Counted from the first letter of the stretch, positions 4,079-11,991 are shown. The stretch: 64,000 bases of DNA from Candidatus Endomicrobiellum devescovinae (GCA_031255495.1 JAIRSK010000020.1:9367-73366); one strand, 5' to 3'. Numbers and translations are program-made. Notes: generated from the sequence alone by a model not told the origin.

Positions 4079-4256
4079 TGCAATTTAATTCTATGAAAAT
4101 ATTATAATAAATTTGCATATCAAAAGATAGAATAGAGTTGAATGATCCTACCTTTACAATTCCAGAGCTTCTTTGGCAAATTATGGATTTTAGGTTAAGT
4201 TAGGGTTATGCACGTTAAAATAACCAATTTCTACAGGTTTTGCTTACAAATAATAA

Positions 4257-4293
4257 GTTAGGGGTTGTCCCTCCAAATTTGATTTGGTAGAAT
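4257..4293 (+). repeat. CRISPR repeat R1 (cas-distal), carries a complete promoter-like motif
   Basis: GTTAGGGGTTGTCCCTCCAAATTTGATTTGGTAGAAT. Contains TTGTCC (4265-4270), a 17-nt spacer, then TGG-TAGAAT (4285-4293, extended -10-like). Internal hairpin CCAAAT-TTG-ATTTGG. Confidence 0.65.
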
Positions 4294-4362
4294 TGAAAAG
4301 AAGACCTAGATGATAAAATACATGGGGACATTTTGTCCTTAAATAAAAATAAGGAGCTTAAC

Positions 4363-4491
4363 ATGAAAAAATTTTTTGTATTAAGTTTTTGTTTCGTATT
4401 ATTCTTACCTTTTTTATTTAAATTTCTTTCAGGTGATGGTAGGTGCGGTTCATGGTGTGTTGATACTGGAAACACCTGTATTTGTAATTAG
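4363..4491 (+). CDS. 42-aa signal-peptide-bearing Cys-rich peptide (bacteriocin-like or small membrane toxin-like)
   Basis: Too short for the ORF track. AAGGAG (4352-4357) sits 5 nt before the ATG. Sequence MKKFFVLSFCFVLFLPFLFKFLSGDGRCGSWCVDTGNTCICN has a K-rich n-region, a hydrophobic core, and a C-terminal 18 aa with 4 Cys. Confidence 0.5.
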   Translation: MKKFFVLSFCFVLFLPFLFKFLSGDGRCGSWCVDTGNTCICN

Positions 4492-4493
4492 CC

Positions 4494-4682
4494 ATGGTTA
4501 TTGACGATACTTTACCTATAACTATTCGGAGCGCAATAGCGTCGGGCATTGTTACAACGGCAATATTGTGGGTAGGAACAAAATGGAACGAATTTTGGCT
4601 ATGGATTATATACATTATAGTATTAGCACAAATCTTTACAATATTATATTTTGGATACATTGTTATAAAAGGAACTATATGA
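4494..4682 (+). CDS. 62-aa two-TM membrane protein (possible immunity or partner protein)
   Basis: ATG lies 2 nt after the stop of the preceding peptide gene, suggesting coupling. Two hydrophobic helices (AIASGIVTTAILWVG, FWLWIIYIIVLAQIFTILYFGYIV). No family recognised. Confidence 0.45.
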   Translation: MVIDDTLPITIRSAIASGIVTTAILWVGTKWNEFWLWIIYIIVLAQIFTILYFGYIVIKGTI

Positions 4683-4718
4683 GTTAGGGCGGTATCGCCT
4701 ATACACATGTGGCTGTGT

Positions 4719-4754
4719 GTTAGGGTTGCCCCCCCAGATTTGATTTGGTAGAAT
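4719..4754 (+). repeat. CRISPR repeat R2 (cas-proximal)
   Basis: GTTAGGGTTGCCCCCCCAGATTTGATTTGGTAGAAT. Contains TTGCCC (4726-4731), 17 nt, then TGG-TAGAAT (4746-4754). Has a C7 homopolymer at 4729-4735. Confidence 0.65.
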
Positions 4755-4761
4755 ATCAGAT

Positions 4762-4886
4762 ACAGATTGTCGTCTAAGATGTTTAAGAATTTTTTAGAAA
4801 AAATGCCAAATCAGAGGCTAAGATTGAGGGCTTTCTTAAAAATTTTTAAAATTTAAAAGGGGTAACTCTAATAAGAGTTTTTTCGT
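4762..4886 (+). ncRNA. candidate small RNA from the R2 promoter to a weak terminator; weak tracrRNA candidate
   Basis: Predicted start about 7-9 nt after the R2 -10 box. AUGCCAAAUCA (4803-4813) is complementary to the repeat 3' part UGAUUUGGUA, and GAGGG (4826-4830) to CCCUC. Hairpin AACTCT-AATA-AGAGTT (4864-4879) is followed by a T-run. The repeat 5' third stays unpaired, so the assignment is weak. Confidence 0.3.
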
Positions 4887-4920
4887 AAGATGCTGGTTTT
4901 TACCAGTTCAAAGAAGTTTT

Positions 4921-5247
4921 TTAAAGAAGCGCGTCAAAAAAATCTGGTTGTTTAGGCTCGACTTTTAGTCTGCCATATAAATGCTTTGTCATCTTAAACA
5001 TTCTGTCTGTAAAGAACAAAAGACATATGTGTCCGTTGTCAGGTACGATTTGCTTAATTTGTTTTTCAATAAAATCGCATCTTTCCTTGCTAAAAGCATA
5101 ATAACTATAGACAGATTTTTGCAACATGATAAATCCTGCATTTTTTAATCTTTGTCTAAAGTTGTTAGCAATTCGCATTTGAGTTTTTGTTTTTACAGGC
5201 AAATCAAAAGCAACCAAAATCCACATTGTTTTATATTGAGAAATCAT
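4921..5247 (-). CDS. cas2: CRISPR-associated endoribonuclease Cas2
   Basis: 108 aa; MWILVAFDLPVKTK...QKSVY Cas2 beta-strand motifs; start overlaps the cas1 stop by 4 nt. Confidence 0.9.
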   Translation of the reverse strand: MISQYKTMWILVAFDLPVKTKTQMRIANNFRQRLKNAGFIMLQKSVYSYYAFSKERCDFIEKQIKQIVPDNGHICLLFFTDRMFKMTKHLYGRLKVEPKQPDFFDALL

Positions 5248-6137
5248 CTAAAAATTTTTGGCAAATTTATTTTTTCTTCTTGAATTAGAAAATAGACATA
5301 TGATTGAACATATCTTTGAATTCCTGCTGTAAAATTGAACGCTCCATCTTCAAAATATAAATTACTTTCTATTACGCTTGCTATATATTTTTTTGTCTGA
5401 GGCGTTAAGTCTTTTTCTTGTTTAAAAGGTTCAAGTTTGCTTTTTACCATAAAATCTATAATTGGACGAAACGGTTCCATTAAATCGTCAATTAAACAAA
5501 ATGGGTTGTGGTTTTTGCTGTGAAAAATACCAATAGCAGGATTAAGTCCGGCTGAAACAACCGCTCTTGCCATGCTGCTTCTAACTATCGCATAGCCGTA
5601 ATTTAACGCTGAATTTATAAAATCTCGCCCATTGGAACTTCTATAAAAATTAAAAAATAAATTTTCAAAATAGATCTTTGCGCCGATGCCTTCCTTAAAA
5701 GACGCATCGCCAGAACGAACCTGTTTTGCCATAGCAAAAATTGTTTCAGCCGCTTTATCTATGCCAAAAATTTTTAATACTTCGGCTTGATTATTTAATT
5801 TGCTTGTAATTATTTGTTGCCACGCTTGTTTTATTTTAGGTTTAGATGAATTTATTTGCAGTTGTAATCTTTGCCCGTAAATATTTGTAGTCCAAAACGA
5901 TAATAACATTCCAGCAGGCATATAAGTCTTATCGCAGAAAATAATAGGAACTTTATGTTCTAAACATTTTTGTATGCAAGAATTGGTAATCGTAATATTG
6001 TTTCCGTAAAGTATAATTGTATTTATATCGTCAAATAAACAATGCAATTTTTCTTGATTGTCTTTTACAGCGGAAAAATTATTGTTTTTAACGCATAAAT
6101 GATAACCATCTCCGCTAATGTCCAAAATTTTCCACAT
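5244..6137 (-). CDS. cas1: CRISPR-associated endonuclease Cas1 (type II)
   Basis: 297 aa; follows cas9 by 1 nt. Cas1 C-terminal catalytic region NSALNYGYAIVRSSMARAVVSAGLNPAIGIFH...NPFCLIDDLMEPFRP. Confidence 0.93.
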   Translation of the reverse strand: MWKILDISGDGYHLCVKNNNFSAVKDNQEKLHCLFDDINTIILYGNNITITNSCIQKCLEHKVPIIFCDKTYMPAGMLLSFWTTNIYGQRLQLQINSSKPKIKQAWQQIITSKLNNQAEVLKIFGIDKAAETIFAMAKQVRSGDASFKEGIGAKIYFENLFFNFYRSSNGRDFINSALNYGYAIVRSSMARAVVSAGLNPAIGIFHSKNHNPFCLIDDLMEPFRPIIDFMVKSKLEPFKQEKDLTPQTKKYIASVIESNLYFEDGAFNFTAGIQRYVQSYVYFLIQEEKINLPKIFR

Positions 6138-6138
6138 T

Positions 6139-9100
6139 TTATTTGCCTTTATTTTTTAGTATTGGCGAATAGTATTTTATAAGTCCGCAAGGGCTTAAAA
6201 TAACTTTTCTAGGATTATATTTTTGCATTGAATTTAGATTAAACGAATCATATGGCTTATATGAACTTTTTATTATATTGCTAAACCAAAGTTGAATATT
6301 ATCATTTTCAACTTCAGTGAAAGTATTAACTCTAATAAAAGTTCCATCTGGAAGAGCAGAACCACATCTATTTTTTAAAGATACTTTATCATTTATAGTA
6401 TAATCTAGTTCTAAAATATCTCCTCCATAAATTCTTTCAAACAATTTAAATTCTTGCTCTTTATATTTAGGCTTAATTTTTTTCTGAGCACCAATTTTTC
6501 TTATAATTTCTCCGCAAAGTTTGTTTTTATTGTAATACAAATCTATGCATAAACTATCGCCAGTATCATATCCGTATCCATATTGTTTCTCTTTTGGTTT
6601 GGAAATAGCAAAAAATTTGCTTGGTTCCTTTTTAGAAAGTTGCACATAAAACTTATTCGGCAACAAAGAAATGGCTTTTTTATATATGTTGGCATCGTCC
6701 ACTTTACATTCTTTCTTCCTTTCGGTTTTCGCTTTTTTATTTTCTTCTTCAATCAATTCTTTAGCTTCTTTAAGATTTCTTTGTATATCTTCAAATAGTT
6801 TTTTATTATTAACAACTTCTTTTTTTATTTTCTCATTTTTTAATTCGTTTTGTTTTCTTTCAAATTTTAAAAGAGCAGTTTCTAAAATTTCTTTTGGAGT
6901 TTTTTTCTTATCTATTAATTTTATTTCGCTTAACGATTTGCGGGCAGTTAAAATATACTCATCACTTGAATTATAAACTTTATACATTGTTGCTTTTAGA
7001 AGTTCGCCGTTATTATTATGATCGTGCTTAATGCTGATAAAAGAGTCTTTTAATGCTTGGTTTATAGAATTTTTAAAAGATTCTAATTCTAAATTATTTG
7101 GAGGAATTAAAATTTTAGAAAGCCAATTTTTATCTCTATAATTTATTTTATATCCTTGTCCGGCTAGCTTATTTAATAAATTGCCGTAACCTCTTGAAGC
7201 AAATGCTATAACTATAGCGTCTAACGCATGGTGTCTGTTATCTAATCTAATTTTTTTGTTTTTATTAACATCATCTTGAAACTTTTCTAATTCCTTATCA
7301 GATAGCAATTTTTCTGCAAAAGGGATTAGTAATCCTGATAATCCCCACGCTAAGCGCAGTTGAGCCGTCAAAGAGCCTTTAACACAAATTATATTTGGCT
7401 TCTCAAATAAGCATGAGAGATGTTTATGTGCGATTTTAGAGATATAAGAATTGTCTGTTTCAAATCTCTTTTTCATAGGCTTGTTTTCTATAAATTTTTC
7501 AAAAACTCCTTGATAAAAGCGCCAAGCTTTTTTAGGAAGATTCTTTTTAGCATTTGCAAGTATTTCGTTATAATTGTATTTAATATCCCCAAATTTTGGC
7601 GATGATCCGAAAGCGTTAAAAGGCGACTGCTTGCCTTTATTTTCATTACAGCTTGTATGCGAAATAACACGATTGTTCCTTGTATTATCTTCACTTTCAG
7701 AAATAGGAAATAAATGCTCTATATCAACTTTATTATTTATAATATCGTTAGCATTTATTTGCTGTAAACAAAATGGACAGATCTGATTTTGTTCTTCAAA
7801 TAAGTCAAATTTTAAAATATAGTTTTTTGGATTTTCATTTCTTGTTTTTATAGTTTGTTGGTGCTTTTCTATATACTCTTTATAAATTCTATTCCTCTCC
7901 GTTTCGTTATGGCTTTGCTCATTACTTAATTGCAACCTATCTTTAGCAGATTTTTTTAATTCTTTTGCAGTTTCCAAACCTATCTCTACAGGTTTCTTAC
8001 CAAAAATTTCTATAATTTCATTAACTAATTTGCGAAGCTCGTTTAGTGTTTGATGGACTACGGGATTTGCAATTCTTCCATAGTTTAATTCGTCTTTATT
8101 TGTATAAGGTGTTTTATATTTTCTTTCAGCAAATTGCTTTGAAAAACCTTTTGCAATTACTGCTTGCGTGCTTTCAGGCAAAACGGTACCATAATAAGGC
8201 AATTTGTCTTTAACAGATTGTTTGTCTTTTGTTAACTTACCTTCGTTTAAAGCTTCTTCTATTGCTTCTGTATAAGATAAACCATCTTTTATTTTCTCTA
8301 AAACTATTTTCATAGCGCTTTTGCCAACTGGCGCATATGAAGATGCTAGCACAAGTTTATCAAAAGCTTCATCTATTTCTTTGTCCGATAATTTGTATTC
8401 CTTTTTGAGTTTATCTTTCAAACTTTTTTCATCTGGACAAGAATTCCAATCGTATAAAAAGTGATCTTGTTGCTGTCCAGAAAATCTTTCCCAAAATGGC
8501 ATATCTTCCAGCACGCGTAATTTATAACCTTTTATTTTTTGTGTCTTTTTATCTCTTCCCTGTAGAGCAATATCTTGAGAGTCCACATTTTCTAACTCTA
8601 ACAATTTTTGTGTTTGTGATTGCGTTAATTCTTTTCCCGATAAAAGATGTGCAAATAATTTTTCTTTTTGTTCTTTTGAAAACTGTTTTTCTTCATAATT
8701 TGTAATTTCACCTGTGTCTTTATCAACAATAGCCTGCGAATATCTTGCATTATTTAAAGCTTCCCAAAGACGACGTTCTTCATTTAACTTATGGGAGCGA
8801 GGCAAGCGTTTTTCATTTTTAAAATATGGACAACATCTACTTTCAGGTATTAACTTTTCCGTTTCGTAATTTATCGCTTTAACAATTTGCTCAATATAAT
8901 CGTTAGCTAATTCTTTATAATATTGCGCTTGATTATTTAAAATTGATTGCGTTTCTTTAATTGTAAAATCTCTTGCGGGAAAAAATTGATGATTATCTGT
9001 AGCGTTGCTCACTTTTTCTCTTTTATGTTTTTCTTTGTTTTCAAATTTTTCTCTGTAAAGATATTCGCCGTAAGTTCTATAATGCTTCTCTTTCATTATT

Positions 9101-9678
9101 TGTCCAACACTTTTGGCTATTTTTTTATTTTTCGTATTTTCTTTTTGAGTTTCTTCAGAATCTTCTTCAAAAGTTCTTATTGCAGAAGAACCTCTATGAT
9201 TTGCGATATGGTATAAAGCATATCCTATTTCTTGCAGAGATAATTTTTCGTCAAGAGCCTTAACTCTTAGTTCATATACATCTTTTTGTAAAACTCCTAC
9301 AGGAAATCTTTTAGAAGAAGTTTCCTGATCCGATGAATTTTCTTTTTTGTCTAAATTATTTGGAACAGGTAAAGCTAACTTTTTAGATGCTAAAAGTTTC
9401 CATAAATAACGCATTCTTTCTCTAGTATGTCTATGATTATTCCTTTGCCCTCTTTGCATTCTTCTATTTATAGCACCATCAGACGCTTTGAAAATTCTTG
9501 AGCCGTTCATTATTATTTCTTTAGGTAACAAATTTTTCTCTGAGTTTTTTTCCATAGACACTATCGCAAAGCCTATGGAACCCACTCCTAAGTCTAGCCC
9601 TATACGATAATCTCTATTTCTTAATTTTTCTTTTATTTGCGCTAAATATTTCAGATAAATTTGATTTTTTGATTGCAT
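6139..9678 (-). CDS. cas9: Cas9, type II-C architecture (no csn2 or cas4 in the operon)
   Basis: 1179 aa. RuvC-I YRIGLDLGVGSIGFA (D29). Arg-rich bridge helix RRMQRGQRNNHRHTRERMRYL. HNH DIEHLFPISESEDNTRNNRVISHTSCNENKG. RuvC-III NRHHALDAIVIA. ATG preceded by AGGAAGGGA. Confidence 0.95.
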   Translation of the reverse strand: MQSKNQIYLKYLAQIKEKLRNRDYRIGLDLGVGSIGFAIVSMEKNSEKNLLPKEIIMNGSRIFKASDGAINRRMQRGQRNNHRHTRERMRYLWKLLASKKLALPVPNNLDKKENSSDQETSSKRFPVGVLQKDVYELRVKALDEKLSLQEIGYALYHIANHRGSSAIRTFEEDSEETQKENTKNKKIAKSVGQIMKEKHYRTYGEYLYREKFENKEKHKREKVSNATDNHQFFPARDFTIKETQSILNNQAQYYKELANDYIEQIVKAINYETEKLIPESRCCPYFKNEKRLPRSHKLNEERRLWEALNNARYSQAIVDKDTGEITNYEEKQFSKEQKEKLFAHLLSGKELTQSQTQKLLELENVDSQDIALQGRDKKTQKIKGYKLRVLEDMPFWERFSGQQQDHFLYDWNSCPDEKSLKDKLKKEYKLSDKEIDEAFDKLVLASSYAPVGKSAMKIVLEKIKDGLSYTEAIEEALNEGKLTKDKQSVKDKLPYYGTVLPESTQAVIAKGFSKQFAERKYKTPYTNKDELNYGRIANPVVHQTLNELRKLVNEIIEIFGKKPVEIGLETAKELKKSAKDRLQLSNEQSHNETERNRIYKEYIEKHQQTIKTRNENPKNYILKFDLFEEQNQICPFCLQQINANDIINNKVDIEHLFPISESEDNTRNNRVISHTSCNENKGKQSPFNAFGSSPKFGDIKYNYNEILANAKKNLPKKAWRFYQGVFEKFIENKPMKKRFETDNSYISKIAHKHLSCLFEKPNIICVKGSLTAQLRLAWGLSGLLIPFAEKLLSDKELEKFQDDVNKNKKIRLDNRHHALDAIVIAFASRGYGNLLNKLAGQGYKINYRDKNWLSKILIPPNNLELESFKNSINQALKDSFISIKHDHNNNGELLKATMYKVYNSSDEYILTARKSLSEIKLIDKKKTPKEILETALLKFERKQNELKNEKIKKEVVNNKKLFEDIQRNLKEAKELIEEENKKAKTERKKECKVDDANIYKKAISLLPNKFYVQLSKKEPSKFFAISKPKEKQYGYGYDTGDSLCIDLYYNKNKLCGEIIRKIGAQKKIKPKYKEQEFKLFERIYGGDILELDYTINDKVSLKNRCGSALPDGTFIRVNTFTEVENDNIQLWFSNIIKSSYKPYDSFNLNSMQKYNPRKVILSPCGLIKYYSPILKNKGK

Positions 9679-9811
9679 ATTCCCTTCCTAATTTTATTTT
9701 TATAGATTTAAAATCTGCTGAATGAGCATATATTTCTTTATTCATAATCAGTCTGTATTTTTAAATCAACAAATATCAACACAGCGTATAATAATGACAA
9801 CATTAACATGA

Positions 9812-9827
9812 TAAGAAAATTTTCTTA
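9812..9827. promoter_or_regulatory. perfect 16-bp palindrome upstream of cas9 (possible operator)
   Basis: TAAGAAAATTTTCTTA, about 135-150 nt upstream of the cas9 ATG. Function unknown. Confidence 0.2.
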
Positions 9828-9917
9828 GAATTATGCCAAACTCTACTTCGTCGGCAGGATTAATTAAGCACCTGCTGTATGAATTAAAAAGAGGAATGCA
9901 ACCTTTAGGCATTATAG

Positions 9918-9993
9918 AAAAAAAAAAAAATAGAAAATCTAGTATCTATAAAATTATTGTTCAGATATACTCATGTATGGCTGTGTATGAGTA
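9918..9993 (-). terminator. trp operon 3' region: hairpin plus T13 tract
   Basis: Minus strand has TACTCAT-N12-ATGAGTA (9968-9993), then a weak ATAGA..TCTAT hairpin directly followed by T13 (A13 on the plus strand, 9918-9930), downstream of the trpA stop. Confidence 0.35.
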
Positions 9994-10037: not shown

Positions 10038-10814
10038 TCAATTGAGTATAATAGCTTTTTTAAGTTCAGACGAATAATTTGCTAGTTTTACAGCCGCATT
10101 AACTTTATATTGTTCTATTATTTTTACAACAGCGCTGCCTATTATTACACCATCTGCACATTTTACAATTTCTTTTGCCTGAGAAGTTTTTGAAATACCA
10201 AAACCAACAACAACCGGAATATCTGTAACATTTTTTATTTCAGACATAATCGCTTTAATATCTGTAGTTATCCTATTTCTTAGTCCTGTAACGCCAAGCG
10301 ACGAAACAAGATATATAAATCCTTCAGCTTGTTTTGCTAAAATAGGTATTCTTTTTTTAGAAGTCGGAGCTATCAAAGTAATAATTGTTATGCTGTATTT
10401 TCTTGCAAAATGTTTAACTTCTTCCTGTTCTTCAAAAGGCATATCAGGAACAATTATTCCATCTAGTCCTACCTCTTTACATCTTTTAAAAAATTTCTCA
10501 TAACCATAAAAGAACATAGAGTTTAAATATGTCATAAAAACTAAAGGAATATCAGATTTTTTTCTGACATTGAGAACTATGCCAAAAATATCTTCTAAAT
10601 TTATATTTTTAGATAATGCTCTTACCATAGCGTTTTGTATTGTTTCCCCTTCTGCAACAGGATCTGAAAATGGAATTCCTATTTCTATTAAATCAGCTCC
10701 GTTTAAAGCCATCGCTAAAATATACTCTTCAGTTTTAGAAATATCAGGATCGCCAGCAGTAAGATATGTTATTAAAGCTTTATTATTTTTAAATATTTTA
10801 GTTATTCTATTCAT
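10038..10814 (-). CDS. trpA: tryptophan synthase alpha chain
   Basis: 258 aa; LITYLTAGDP...ADLIEIGIPFSDPVAEG...GFGIS motifs; last gene of the trp operon. Confidence 0.93.
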   Translation of the reverse strand: MNRITKIFKNNKALITYLTAGDPDISKTEEYILAMALNGADLIEIGIPFSDPVAEGETIQNAMVRALSKNINLEDIFGIVLNVRKKSDIPLVFMTYLNSMFFYGYEKFFKRCKEVGLDGIIVPDMPFEEQEEVKHFARKYSITIITLIAPTSKKRIPILAKQAEGFIYLVSSLGVTGLRNRITTDIKAIMSEIKNVTDIPVVVGFGISKTSQAKEIVKCADGVIIGSAVVKIIEQYKVNAAVKLANYSSELKKAIILN

Positions 10815-10815
10815 T

Positions 10816-11991
10816 TTATATAACTCCTTTATACTCAGCTATCATCGCAACGTCCTTGTCTCCTCTGCCAGAAATACAAACAACTATTATTTCATCTTTT
10901 GACATTTTTGGAGCAAGCTGCATTGCATAATACATTGCATGAGCAGATTCTATTGCCGGAATAATTCCTTCAGTTTTTGATAGAAATTCAAAAGCTGCAA
11001 CTGCTTCATCATCAGTGACGGGAATATATTCAGCTCTTTTTGTATCGTGCAGATAAGCATGCTCAGGACCTATGCCTGGATAATCAAGCCCTGCCGATAT
11101 TGAATATACGGGAGCAATTTGCCCATTTTCCGTCTGGCAAAAATAAGATTTCATTCCGTGGAATATCCCGACTTTTCCTTTTGTAATAGTGGCAGCCGTT
11201 TCTAAAGTATCAACGCCTTTGCCCGCAGCTTCACAGCCTATAAGGTTAACTTCTTTATCATTTATAAAATTATAAAAAGCACCTATTGAGTTTGAACCGC
11301 CTCCAACGCAAGCAATAACAACAGACGGCAGTTTTGATTCTTTTTTAAACAACTGTTCTTTTATTTCTTTGCTTATAATGCTTTGGAAATCTCTTACAAT
11401 GTGAGGATATGGATAAGGTCCCATTGCAGAACCTAAAACATAAAATGTATCGTCAATCCTGCTGCTCCATTCTCTCATTGTTTGGCTTACAGCATCTTTT
11501 AAAGTTTTTGTGCCAGTTTCAACAGAATTGACTTTAGCACCCAATAGTTGCATTCTAAAAACATTTAAAGACTGTCGTTCAATATCTTCTCGCCCCATAA
11601 AAATTTCACATTCCATATTAAACAGTGCAGCAGCAGTAGCTGTTGCAACGCCATGCTGCCCGGCGCCTGTTTCTGCTATAACTCTTGTTTTGCCCATCTT
11701 TTTTGCAAGTAAAATCTGTCCTAAAACATTGTTTATTTTATGAGATCCTGTATGATTTAAATCTTCTCTTTTTAAATATATTTTCGCACCGCCAAGTTTT
11801 TCAGTAGCATTTTTAGCAAAATACAATCTTGACGGTCTGCCTGCATATTCATTAAGCAAACATTTAAGCTCACTATTAAACTGCTTGTCATTTTTAAAAT
11901 GATTGTATGCCGTTTCCAATTCATTTACAGCATTCATAAGCGTTTCAGGTATATATTGACCACCGTATATTCCAAATTTTTCTTTTGACAT
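10816..11991 (-). CDS. trpB: tryptophan synthase beta chain
   Basis: 391 aa; [20 protein letters not shown] (PLP lysine), GGGSNSIG. Confidence 0.95.

Follow-up and report, generated by a model that had tools for sequence, protein, structure and literature searches.

What remains of a type II-C CRISPR-Cas system whose proteins appear intact but whose CRISPR array is reduced to two diverged repeats? The question is raised by a locus in a stretch of 64,000 nucleotides of Candidatus Endomicrobiellum devescovinae (GCA_031255495.1 JAIRSK010000020.1:9367-73366), hereafter called the window. The original prediction, made from the sequence alone, had recognized there a cas9-cas1-cas2 operon and two repeats 425 nt apart, and had proposed either a decaying array or a repurposed mini-CRISPR. 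Four observations bear on this choice: the anatomy of the locus, an allelic series among conspecific strains, the complementarity with covariation between the repeat and a trans-activating CRISPR RNA (tracrRNA) candidate, and a ratio of non-synonymous to synonymous polymorphism (pN/pS) of about 1 in cas9. They lead us to consider that the two-repeat locus is probably one allele in a series in which the array contracts and decays while selection on defence is relaxed.

The cas genes and the repeats are positioned as follows.

6139-9678, minus strand: cas9, 1179 aa, full length (TIGR01865, 512 bits, model positions 1-1070 of 1070)
5244-6137, minus strand: cas1 of type II (NMENI class), 297 aa (TIGR03639, 250 bits, model positions 1-277 of 278)
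4921-5247, minus strand: cas2, 108 aa (TIGR01573 match)
4719-4754, plus strand: R2, the cas-proximal repeat, 36 nt, with a C7 tract and the embedded TTGCCC-17-TGGTAGAAT
4257-4293, plus strand: R1, the cas-distal repeat, 37 nt, with one extra G, 3 substitutions and the embedded TTGTCC-17-TGGTAGAAT

The three cas genes are contiguous and cas1 overlaps cas2 by 4 nt. cas1 and cas2 are the sole adaptation genes, without the csn2 of type II-A or the cas4 of type II-B. In the Cas9 translation, D29 lies within IGLDLGVGSIG, the HNH motif reads DIEH...SCNENKG and RuvC-III reads NRHHALDA, and the RuvC-I, RuvC-II, RuvC-III and HNH motifs of a type II-C Cas9 are all present. Together with the TIGR matches and the coupled cas1 and cas2, these motifs bear out the claim of an apparently intact operon. 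The protein aligns end to end, with 72% identity, with Cas9 of L001, a relative that carries a normal array. Its homologues come from termite-gut Endomicrobium and Elusimicrobiota metagenome-assembled genomes (MAGs), the best named relatives being Endomicrobium, Elusimicrobiota, Treponema and Epulopiscium MAG proteins, and Cas9 of phylotype MdMp-027 is 55% identical. An exact look-up of the window Cas9 returned no record, and a Cas9-based locus search of the GTDB genomes gave one partial locus only. The locus is a genuine type II-C CRISPR-Cas system of termite-gut Endomicrobium, in which the cas module belongs to this class and the array is vestigial.

R1 and R2 differ by 3 substitutions and 1 indel and are separated by 425 nt (4294-4718), exactly as first described. 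Tandem Repeats Finder (TRF) detected no further array in the window, and the 15-mer TTGATTTGGTAGAAT common to the two repeats occurs exactly twice in the 64 kb. Regular repeats with spacers of about 30 nt are absent from the window and present in conspecific strains and in L001. The promoter layout that had been read in each repeat was reproduced by a promoter scan, which gave TTGTCC-17-TAGAAT at 4265-4293 and TTGCCC-17-TAGAAT at 4726-4754, with TG preceding each TAGAAT; the same consensus with TG is found in the L001 repeat. L001 contains a canonical array of 15 repeats with a 66-nt period (repeat GTTAGGGTTGCCCCCCGAGTTTGAACTTGGTAAAAT), read opposite to cas. A hand alignment of R2 with this repeat gave about 31 identical positions out of 36, and the repeat starts 166 nt after the cas2 stop codon both in L001 and, as R2, in the window. 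Judged by these sequence comparisons, R1 and R2 are true CRISPR repeats homologous to those of the canonical L001 array.

Could the 36-mer instead be a genome-wide element of the repetitive extragenic palindromic (REP) type, unrelated to cas? This appears hardly conceivable. Only two copies are present in 64 kb, where a REP or a miniature inverted-repeat transposable element (MITE) would show dispersed copies; the repeat forms canonical arrays of 66-nt period beside homologous cas operons, and it pairs with a co-varying tracrRNA (see below). The repeat CCARATTTGATTTGGTAGAAT had no match in GTDB genomes or JGI metagenome contigs, two collections that evidently lack or mask the samples holding this species, and no exact match in IMG/VR, where four single matches to a 16-mer of the repeat were judged to be due to chance. 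Thus neither a multi-spacer array elsewhere nor a dispersed 36-mer, the two findings that would have spoken against the original prediction, appeared in the window or in these three collections. Two contigs that do contain the repeat pattern, L009 and L010, were reached only via protein look-up.

Two other features of the repeats had been singled out. The hairpin CCAAAT/ATTTGG, described as unusual for type II, can indeed form 6 bp, with one compensatory pair relative to L001, but its stability (z of -0.5 to -1.5) is within the range of shuffled sequences; it sits in the spacer region of the promoter and is not taken as established. The C7 tract of R2 (4728-4734) is real and polymorphic among strains, with C6, C7 and C8 forms (L009, L011, X1, X8) that shift the distance between the -35 and -10 elements from 16 to 18 nt. 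It is no peculiarity of R2: because the L001 repeat carries C6, the C-run represents the ancestral state of the repeat.

The 425 nt between the repeats are not a spacer. They consist of a small gene cassette, a 7-nt repeat stub and a 29-nt remnant, and further elements lie on the cas-distal side of R1.

4138-4203, plus strand: antitoxin remnant of the HI1420-downstream type, of which the last 6 codons (MDFRLS) and the stop codon run into the first repeat
4199-4207, plus strand: stub GTTAGGGTT, the first 9 nt of the repeat, abutting the conserved flank
4208-4256, plus strand: 49-nt insert between this stub and R1, absent from L011 and L021, present in X6 and X8
4363-4491, plus strand: 42-aa open reading frame (ORF); AAGGAG precedes the ATG by 6 nt, the N-terminus is hydrophobic and signal-peptide-like, and four of the last 16 residues are cysteines
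4494-4682, plus strand: 62-aa ORF of membrane type, with two hydrophobic stretches (by eye)
4683-4689, plus strand: stub GTTAGGG, the first 7 nt of the repeat, where the homology with the cas-less L021 stops
4690-4718, plus strand: 29-nt spacer-like remnant directly upstream of R2, the only possible guide

Evidence for contraction came from sister strains. Conspecific contigs were found by exact look-up of Cas2, identical in five of them, and of the 62-aa protein; their flanks are 98.6-99.7% identical to the window at the nucleotide level. Logan contigs from eight termite-gut runs (numbered with X) were also examined. Three alleles differing from that of the window were obtained as assembled contigs.

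Lone-repeat allele (L009, L010, L012): M23 peptidase gene, antitoxin remnant, one repeat (C8), tracrRNA, cas2-cas1-cas9; window positions 4208-4718 absent
Repeat-cassette-repeat allele (L011): intact antitoxin gene, repeat, longer cassette, R2 (C6), tracrRNA, cas2, cas1, split cas9
Cas-less allele (L021, GCA_031267795.1): antitoxin gene, repeat, cassette, 234 nt of unrelated DNA, trpA; window positions 4684-9929 absent

The cas genes are affected differently in these alleles. L010 and L012 have a split cas1, the cas9 of L011 is broken into parts of 777 and 389 aa, and L021 lacks the tracrRNA and all three cas genes, its homology to the window ending exactly at the GTTAGGG stub. The cassette varies as well: that of L011 has a peptide whose mature part differs, a 51-aa ORF in addition and a shortened 62-aa ORF, and the peptide of L021 has a cysteine replaced by tyrosine. 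The 234 nt that replace the cas module in L021 (6190-6424) start with the degenerate repeat-like GAAAGGATGCCCCTTCAAAT and hold a 34-nt inverted repeat (TTGTCAACGGCTGG...CCAGTCGTTGACAA). The degenerate repeat lies exactly where a repeat is expected after the cassette, but its score of 24 is also reached by chance in the window, so that it is suggestive only. In L011, trpF, trpA and cas9 are each interrupted (2635-2889, 4437-5214 and 5570-9109), which agrees with the general build-up of pseudogenes in a lifestyle of reductive evolution.

The Logan runs added the other end of the series. Exact R2-type repeats with different 30-nt spacers were found in X7, X1, X8 and X2, bordered by the same end of the antitoxin gene and the same tracrRNA region. 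In X7, three repeat-spacer-repeat joints were covered at 33-38x and the repeat core at 225x, and in X1 a strain with a normal array was present at 208-300x. The window-type allele was seen independently in X1, on a 3374-nt contig without mismatch over 4754 back to 3800, and in X8. X6 contains a mosaic composed of the stub, the 49 nt, R1, the full cassette and then a flank of the L021 type. From the conspecific contigs and the Logan runs it therefore follows that one species holds normal-array, repeat-cassette-repeat, lone-repeat and cas-less forms. The comparison of related genomes that had been called for thus places normal arrays with the same repeat at the same locus in sister strains.

These data also allow an assembly artefact to be weighed, in which a normal array would have been collapsed by the metagenome assembler, or two strains fused at a shared repeat. 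The word depth of the repeat core in X1 is about 1590, as compared with 53 for the flanks; the X1 contigs break at R2, the exact window sequence 4755-4892 was not seen in X1 at about 53x, and the same samples also contain sister strains whose arrays are real. Accordingly, the junction between R2 and the tracrRNA region of the exact window strain was not independently seen in X1, the best run for the window, where Logan contigs break at the repeat; five conspecific contigs do contain the same junction. The excess depth in X1 is, however, accounted for by the more abundant strain (208-300x) with about five repeats. Moreover, R1, the cassette and R2 are contiguous and identical in the independent X1 contig; cassette, R2, tracrRNA and cas2 are contiguous in L011 (a 19.7-kb contig), and so are the lone repeat, tracrRNA and cas2 in L009, L010 and L012. 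A collapse cannot yield a unique 425-nt insert or two diverged repeats. An artefact is thus very unlikely.

The evolution of cas9 was estimated by the Nei-Gojobori method between the window and the sister contigs. The pN/pS values for cas9 were 0.8-1.5, as compared with 0.4-0.6 for the pooled flanking trp, M23 and radical-SAM genes. The counts are small; taken with the independent pseudogenes, they point to a relaxed constraint on cas9. The decaying-array alternative is thereby strongly supported by both the conspecific allelic series and the near-neutral evolution of cas9. The original interpretation is, overall, partly supported; the tracrRNA, the composite nature of the 425 nt and the second stub at 4199-4207 had escaped the original prediction.

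The interval between R2 and cas2 contains two elements.

4824-4852, plus strand: promoter-like TTGAGG-17-TAAAAT, placed for a tracrRNA start near 4859 (consensus match only)
4859-4922, plus strand: tracrRNA candidate, with anti-repeat GGGGTAACTCTAAT (4859-4872), conserved AAGAGTTTTTTCGTAAGATG, hairpin (4893-4906) and T-run (4917-4922); the 3′ end is uncertain

The anti-repeat GGGGTAACTCTAAT is complementary to the first 14 nt of R2, and the computed pairing energy was -22.2 kcal/mol as compared with -6.2 ± 2.3 kcal/mol for shuffled anti-repeats. Pairing with R1, which has the extra G, was weaker (-15.3 kcal/mol). The segment is conserved in L001, L003, L005, L007, L014 and L016 with the pattern GGG(C/T)AACTCTAA(T/C)AAGA.TTTTTTCGTAAGATGC(C/T)GG...CC(G/A)GTTC. 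Covariation was found in its hairpin, CTGG/CCAG in the window versus CCGG/CCGG elsewhere (C-G to U-A), and between the two partners of the duplex, since in L014 a G10C change of the repeat is matched by C-to-G in the anti-repeat, as read from the sequences. The free tracrRNA fold was no more stable than its shuffled versions (z of -0.36), and no Rfam match was obtained anywhere in the window. We take the element at about 4859-4922 to be a candidate tracrRNA gene, on the basis of conservation and pairing, not of fold energy.

Some side observations concern this element. A second repeat-complementary stretch, UGCCAAAUCAGA at 4803-4814, can form 12 bp with positions 21-32 of R2 (-17 kcal/mol). 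It lies 45 nt upstream of the main anti-repeat, with the predicted tracrRNA promoter in between, and L001 does not conserve it. Either a formerly longer anti-repeat may have left this stretch behind, or it may belong to a long tracrRNA isoform that starts from R2. In L014 (Elusimicrobiota, Cas9 58% identical), two tandem tracrRNA-like copies follow cas2 at 10755-10925, and the repeat after them carries the compensating base. In L016 (Endomicrobiia, Cas9 57% identical), a tracrRNA-like element follows cas2 at 10486-10842 with no repeat before the next gene, and both Cas9 and Cas1 are shortened. More distant relatives such as L016 show the same trend of array loss.

How would such a locus work, if at all? 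The allelic series would be driven by recombination and deletion between repeats. Both repeat-embedded promoters of the window would fire on the plus strand, towards cas2, with starts predicted near 4299 for R1 and 4760 for R2, and a third start near 4859 for the tracrRNA. The R1 transcript would be the cassette mRNA and would continue via the 29-nt remnant into R2, of which the first 14 nt could form a duplex with the tracrRNA 5′ end. No more than one CRISPR RNA (crRNA), of an atypical kind with a long 5′ extension and the guide ...ACACATGTGGCTGTGT, could load Cas9, and this sole predicted species would end in GUUAGGGUUGCCCC. The R2 transcript would meet no downstream repeat and would only read into the tracrRNA gene. 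Because at most one guide would be available, the interference memory would be practically empty while the proteins are intact. Cas1-Cas2 could in principle re-grow the array. No RNA runs holding the region were found.

Several points weigh against decay. The promoters, the tracrRNA and the crRNA are all predicted from sequence. The pN/pS value close to 1 rests on few substitutions and could reflect diversifying selection. All three cas genes and the tracrRNA are intact in the window, in L009 and in L013, which is compatible with continued function. The normal arrays of the sister strains could be the product of re-growth rather than the ancestral state. The repeat searches cover the 64 kb of the window, and a second array may lie elsewhere in the genome. 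Finally, the cassette sits exactly between complete repeats and is kept in four alleles, the cas-less one included, and simple decay leaves this unexplained.

The cassette was also considered as the possible object of selection, in line with the repurposed mini-CRISPR first proposed. R1 would have been kept for the extended -10 promoter within it, from which the peptide and membrane-protein genes would be expressed; the two-repeat unit would be a selected expression module and not debris, and the downstream repeat and the tracrRNA may define the 3′ end of the cassette mRNA. Consistent with this, the cassette always stands directly after a complete promoter-bearing repeat (window, L011, L021 and X6), even in L021, which has no cas gene left, and the consensus AAGGAG of the peptide ORF is placed about 70 nt downstream of the R1 -10 element. 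The 62-aa ORF of L021 encodes the identical protein and differs by one synonymous change and one stop-codon change. The peptide has a paralogue on a 786-nt contig of X7, in which window positions 4346-4431 recur at 94% identity in another context, followed by SNNKCGVCVY: the Shine-Dalgarno site and the signal peptide are the same and the cysteine-rich mature part is different. Since the mature part is likewise replaced in L011 and the signal part conserved, the 42-aa peptide looks like a member of a real family of small secreted peptides of this species, with a conserved signal part and a variable mature part.

The lesions of the cassette argue in the opposite direction, each allele having its own: the Cys to Tyr change in L021, and in L011 a 62-aa ORF that is truncated and devoid of a start codon. 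The 51-aa ORF is missing from the window and from L021, the cassette is wholly lost in single-repeat strains, and a second -10-like site, TGATAAAAT at 4313-4321 (by eye), could serve without R1. No homologues of either ORF were detected by word-index search, in Pfam or in NCBIfam; the 62-aa ORF has none outside this species, and an exact look-up of the 42-aa peptide gave no record. Expression of the cassette is predicted only, and we consider it unlikely that the repeat is maintained for this purpose.

Other identities of the cassette were tried and rejected. Exhaustive HMMER hits of the 42-aa peptide comprised only repetitive junk translations and a chance WCxDxGN..CN motif. No family homology was found for a bacteriocin and immunity cassette, the similarity being limited to the general layout of a Cys-rich secreted peptide followed by membrane ORFs. 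A transposon, insertion sequence or MITE was dismissed, as 4294-4682 contains no transposase ORF and an inverted-repeat scan revealed no terminal pair at the cassette ends; the 7-9-nt direct repeats around the cassette are the 5′ end of the CRISPR repeat itself. The cassette had no match in the phage and plasmid collections.

The stubs raise the separate issue of how the non-repeat DNA entered. They may be footprints of aberrant Cas1-Cas2 integration, that is, partial repeat duplications in which the second cut fell 7-9 nt into the repeat rather than at its far end, and the cassette itself may have been taken up as a 'spacer' of excessive length. This concerns the origin of the allele and is compatible with decay. 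Five copies of GTTAGGG are present in the 64 kb, four of them within 530 nt at the array, when about 3.5 are expected for the whole window. Each of the two extra copies reproduces the 5′ end of the repeat exactly; non-repeat DNA comes next (49 nt in one case and 29 nt in the other), and after it a complete repeat. In four alleles, complete repeats or starts of repeats stand at the ends of the cassette. A degenerate full repeat at 4683-4718 was rejected, as only its first 7 nt are repeat-like and its score is at background.

The 49-nt insert, for its part, has its source elsewhere in the genome, as expected of self DNA acquired by mistake. A 42-nt stretch (4216-4256 plus the first R1 base, 4257) recurs with 3-5 mismatches in another context in X1, X2, X3 and X7. 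In X2 this other copy is on a 12.7-kb contig at chromosomal depth; its flanks there are ...GACGTTAGATTAAGCGTAG and AATTTATATATAATC.... The other copy is, however, itself preceded by GTTAG, and microhomology-mediated recombination explains the junction equally well. Furthermore, the 4199 stub GTTAGGGTT and the R1 start GTTAGGGGT are not identical, and about 6 of 36 positions distinguish R1 from the corresponding repeat of L021 and L011, against an identity of 97-99% in the flanks, which points to recombination between different repeats. The second stub would require integration at the internal repeat R2. Aberrant integration is thus a possible but rather doubtful origin of the stubs. Neither the window nor IMG/VR contained a target of the 29-nt remnant, and no exact match of the 49-nt insert or of two sister-strain spacers was found in IMG/VR. 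That the two processes were combined, the cassette having entered the spacer position by aberrant Cas1-Cas2 integration and being now expressed from the upstream repeat promoter, with the repeat exapted for a secreted peptide gene and both kept even where every cas gene has gone, is distinctly improbable.

The operon is bordered by trpA on one side and by the tracrRNA, the repeats and the M23 peptidase gene on the other. The antitoxin gene is intact (114 aa) in L011 (11017-11361) and in L021 (5300-5769 region), with its stop codon inside the first CRISPR repeat, in GTTAG in the case of L011; the window and L009 retain only its last ~20 nt. In L021, a short stretch upstream of the antitoxin gene resembles, by eye, the C-terminus of a partner toxin. 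On its cas-distal side, the array borders on a toxin-antitoxin module that has decayed. On the other side, the ~250 nt upstream of cas9 (window 9679-9929) are 75% conserved in a relative (L004 and L008, 9621-9834) of which the cas operon lies in a different genomic neighbourhood. This segment travels with the CRISPR-cas module, which occupies different chromosomal sites across Endomicrobium lineages.

The locus was finally compared with known systems. It shares with the type II-C systems of Neisseria meningitidis and Campylobacter jejuni the cas9-cas1-cas2 operon without csn2 or cas4, the 36-nt repeats ending in an extended -10 element (TGnTAnAAT) with a -35-like TTG at 17 nt, and a tracrRNA anti-repeat ending in ...AAT AAG.... 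Neisseria and Campylobacter arrays are read opposite to cas, and the likeness first claimed for the repeat layout and the reading direction of the window was upheld. The window differs by its two repeats without a normal spacer, by a tracrRNA located between the array and cas2, by a demonstrable anti-repeat of only ~14 nt, by a distantly related Cas9 and by an expression that is predicted. In N. meningitidis, crRNAs start from repeat-embedded promoters at the 6th nucleotide of each spacer (PMC12477760); the corresponding promoters of the window are consensus matches only. With a single repeat, an allele of this species yields no crRNA, and its arrays shorten naturally, recombination between repeats being one of the routes (PMC12477760). 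A parallel with these short arrays can be drawn, in which repeat recombination shortens the array, a lone repeat gives no crRNA and Cas9 is left largely guide-free; but the short Neisseria alleles are laboratory products, obtained by engineering or selection in a strain in which defence was selected for, whereas those described here are natural variants in a lineage that is also losing its cas genes.

Type II-C systems in which cas9 is pseudogenized or split and the array has been lost are already known from Endomicrobium endosymbionts (Izawa et al. 2016, PMC5174739). 'Ca. Endomicrobium trichonymphae' and the other phylotypes of that study share with the present population the genus, the habitat, the split cas9 and the lost CRISPR regions, and the differences between near-identical genomovars were read as relaxed selection on defence. 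That work compares two genomovars and three draft genomes, and describes no two-repeat cassette allele, repeat stubs or tracrRNA. Non-spacer DNA between repeats is also known from Tn7-like transposons targeting CRISPR repeats (PMC11837452) and from prophage integration in S. pyogenes (bioRxiv 10.1101/2020.10.09.333658). Unlike these, the insert described here is only 0.39-0.56 kb long, has no transposase or integrase gene and no terminal inverted repeats that we noticed, and consists of small endogenous ORFs with a family copy elsewhere in the genome.

The locus is thus mostly ordinary and adds a further case to a process already known in Endomicrobium, the contraction of CRISPR arrays and the decay of defence, with an allelic series that is well resolved and a tracrRNA that is newly delimited. 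The repeat-framed cassette and its stubs form one unusual element, which matters only if it is an integration product or an exapted promoter module. Cas9, tracrRNA and repeat together delimit an unstudied Cas9 lineage with a short anti-repeat. The allelic series supports and extends the picture drawn for Endomicrobium endosymbionts and supplies naturally occurring equivalents of the short-array alleles engineered in Neisseria. With a series running from array to nothing within one species-level population, the locus offers a fine-grained natural snapshot of a Cas9 system dying in a symbiont.

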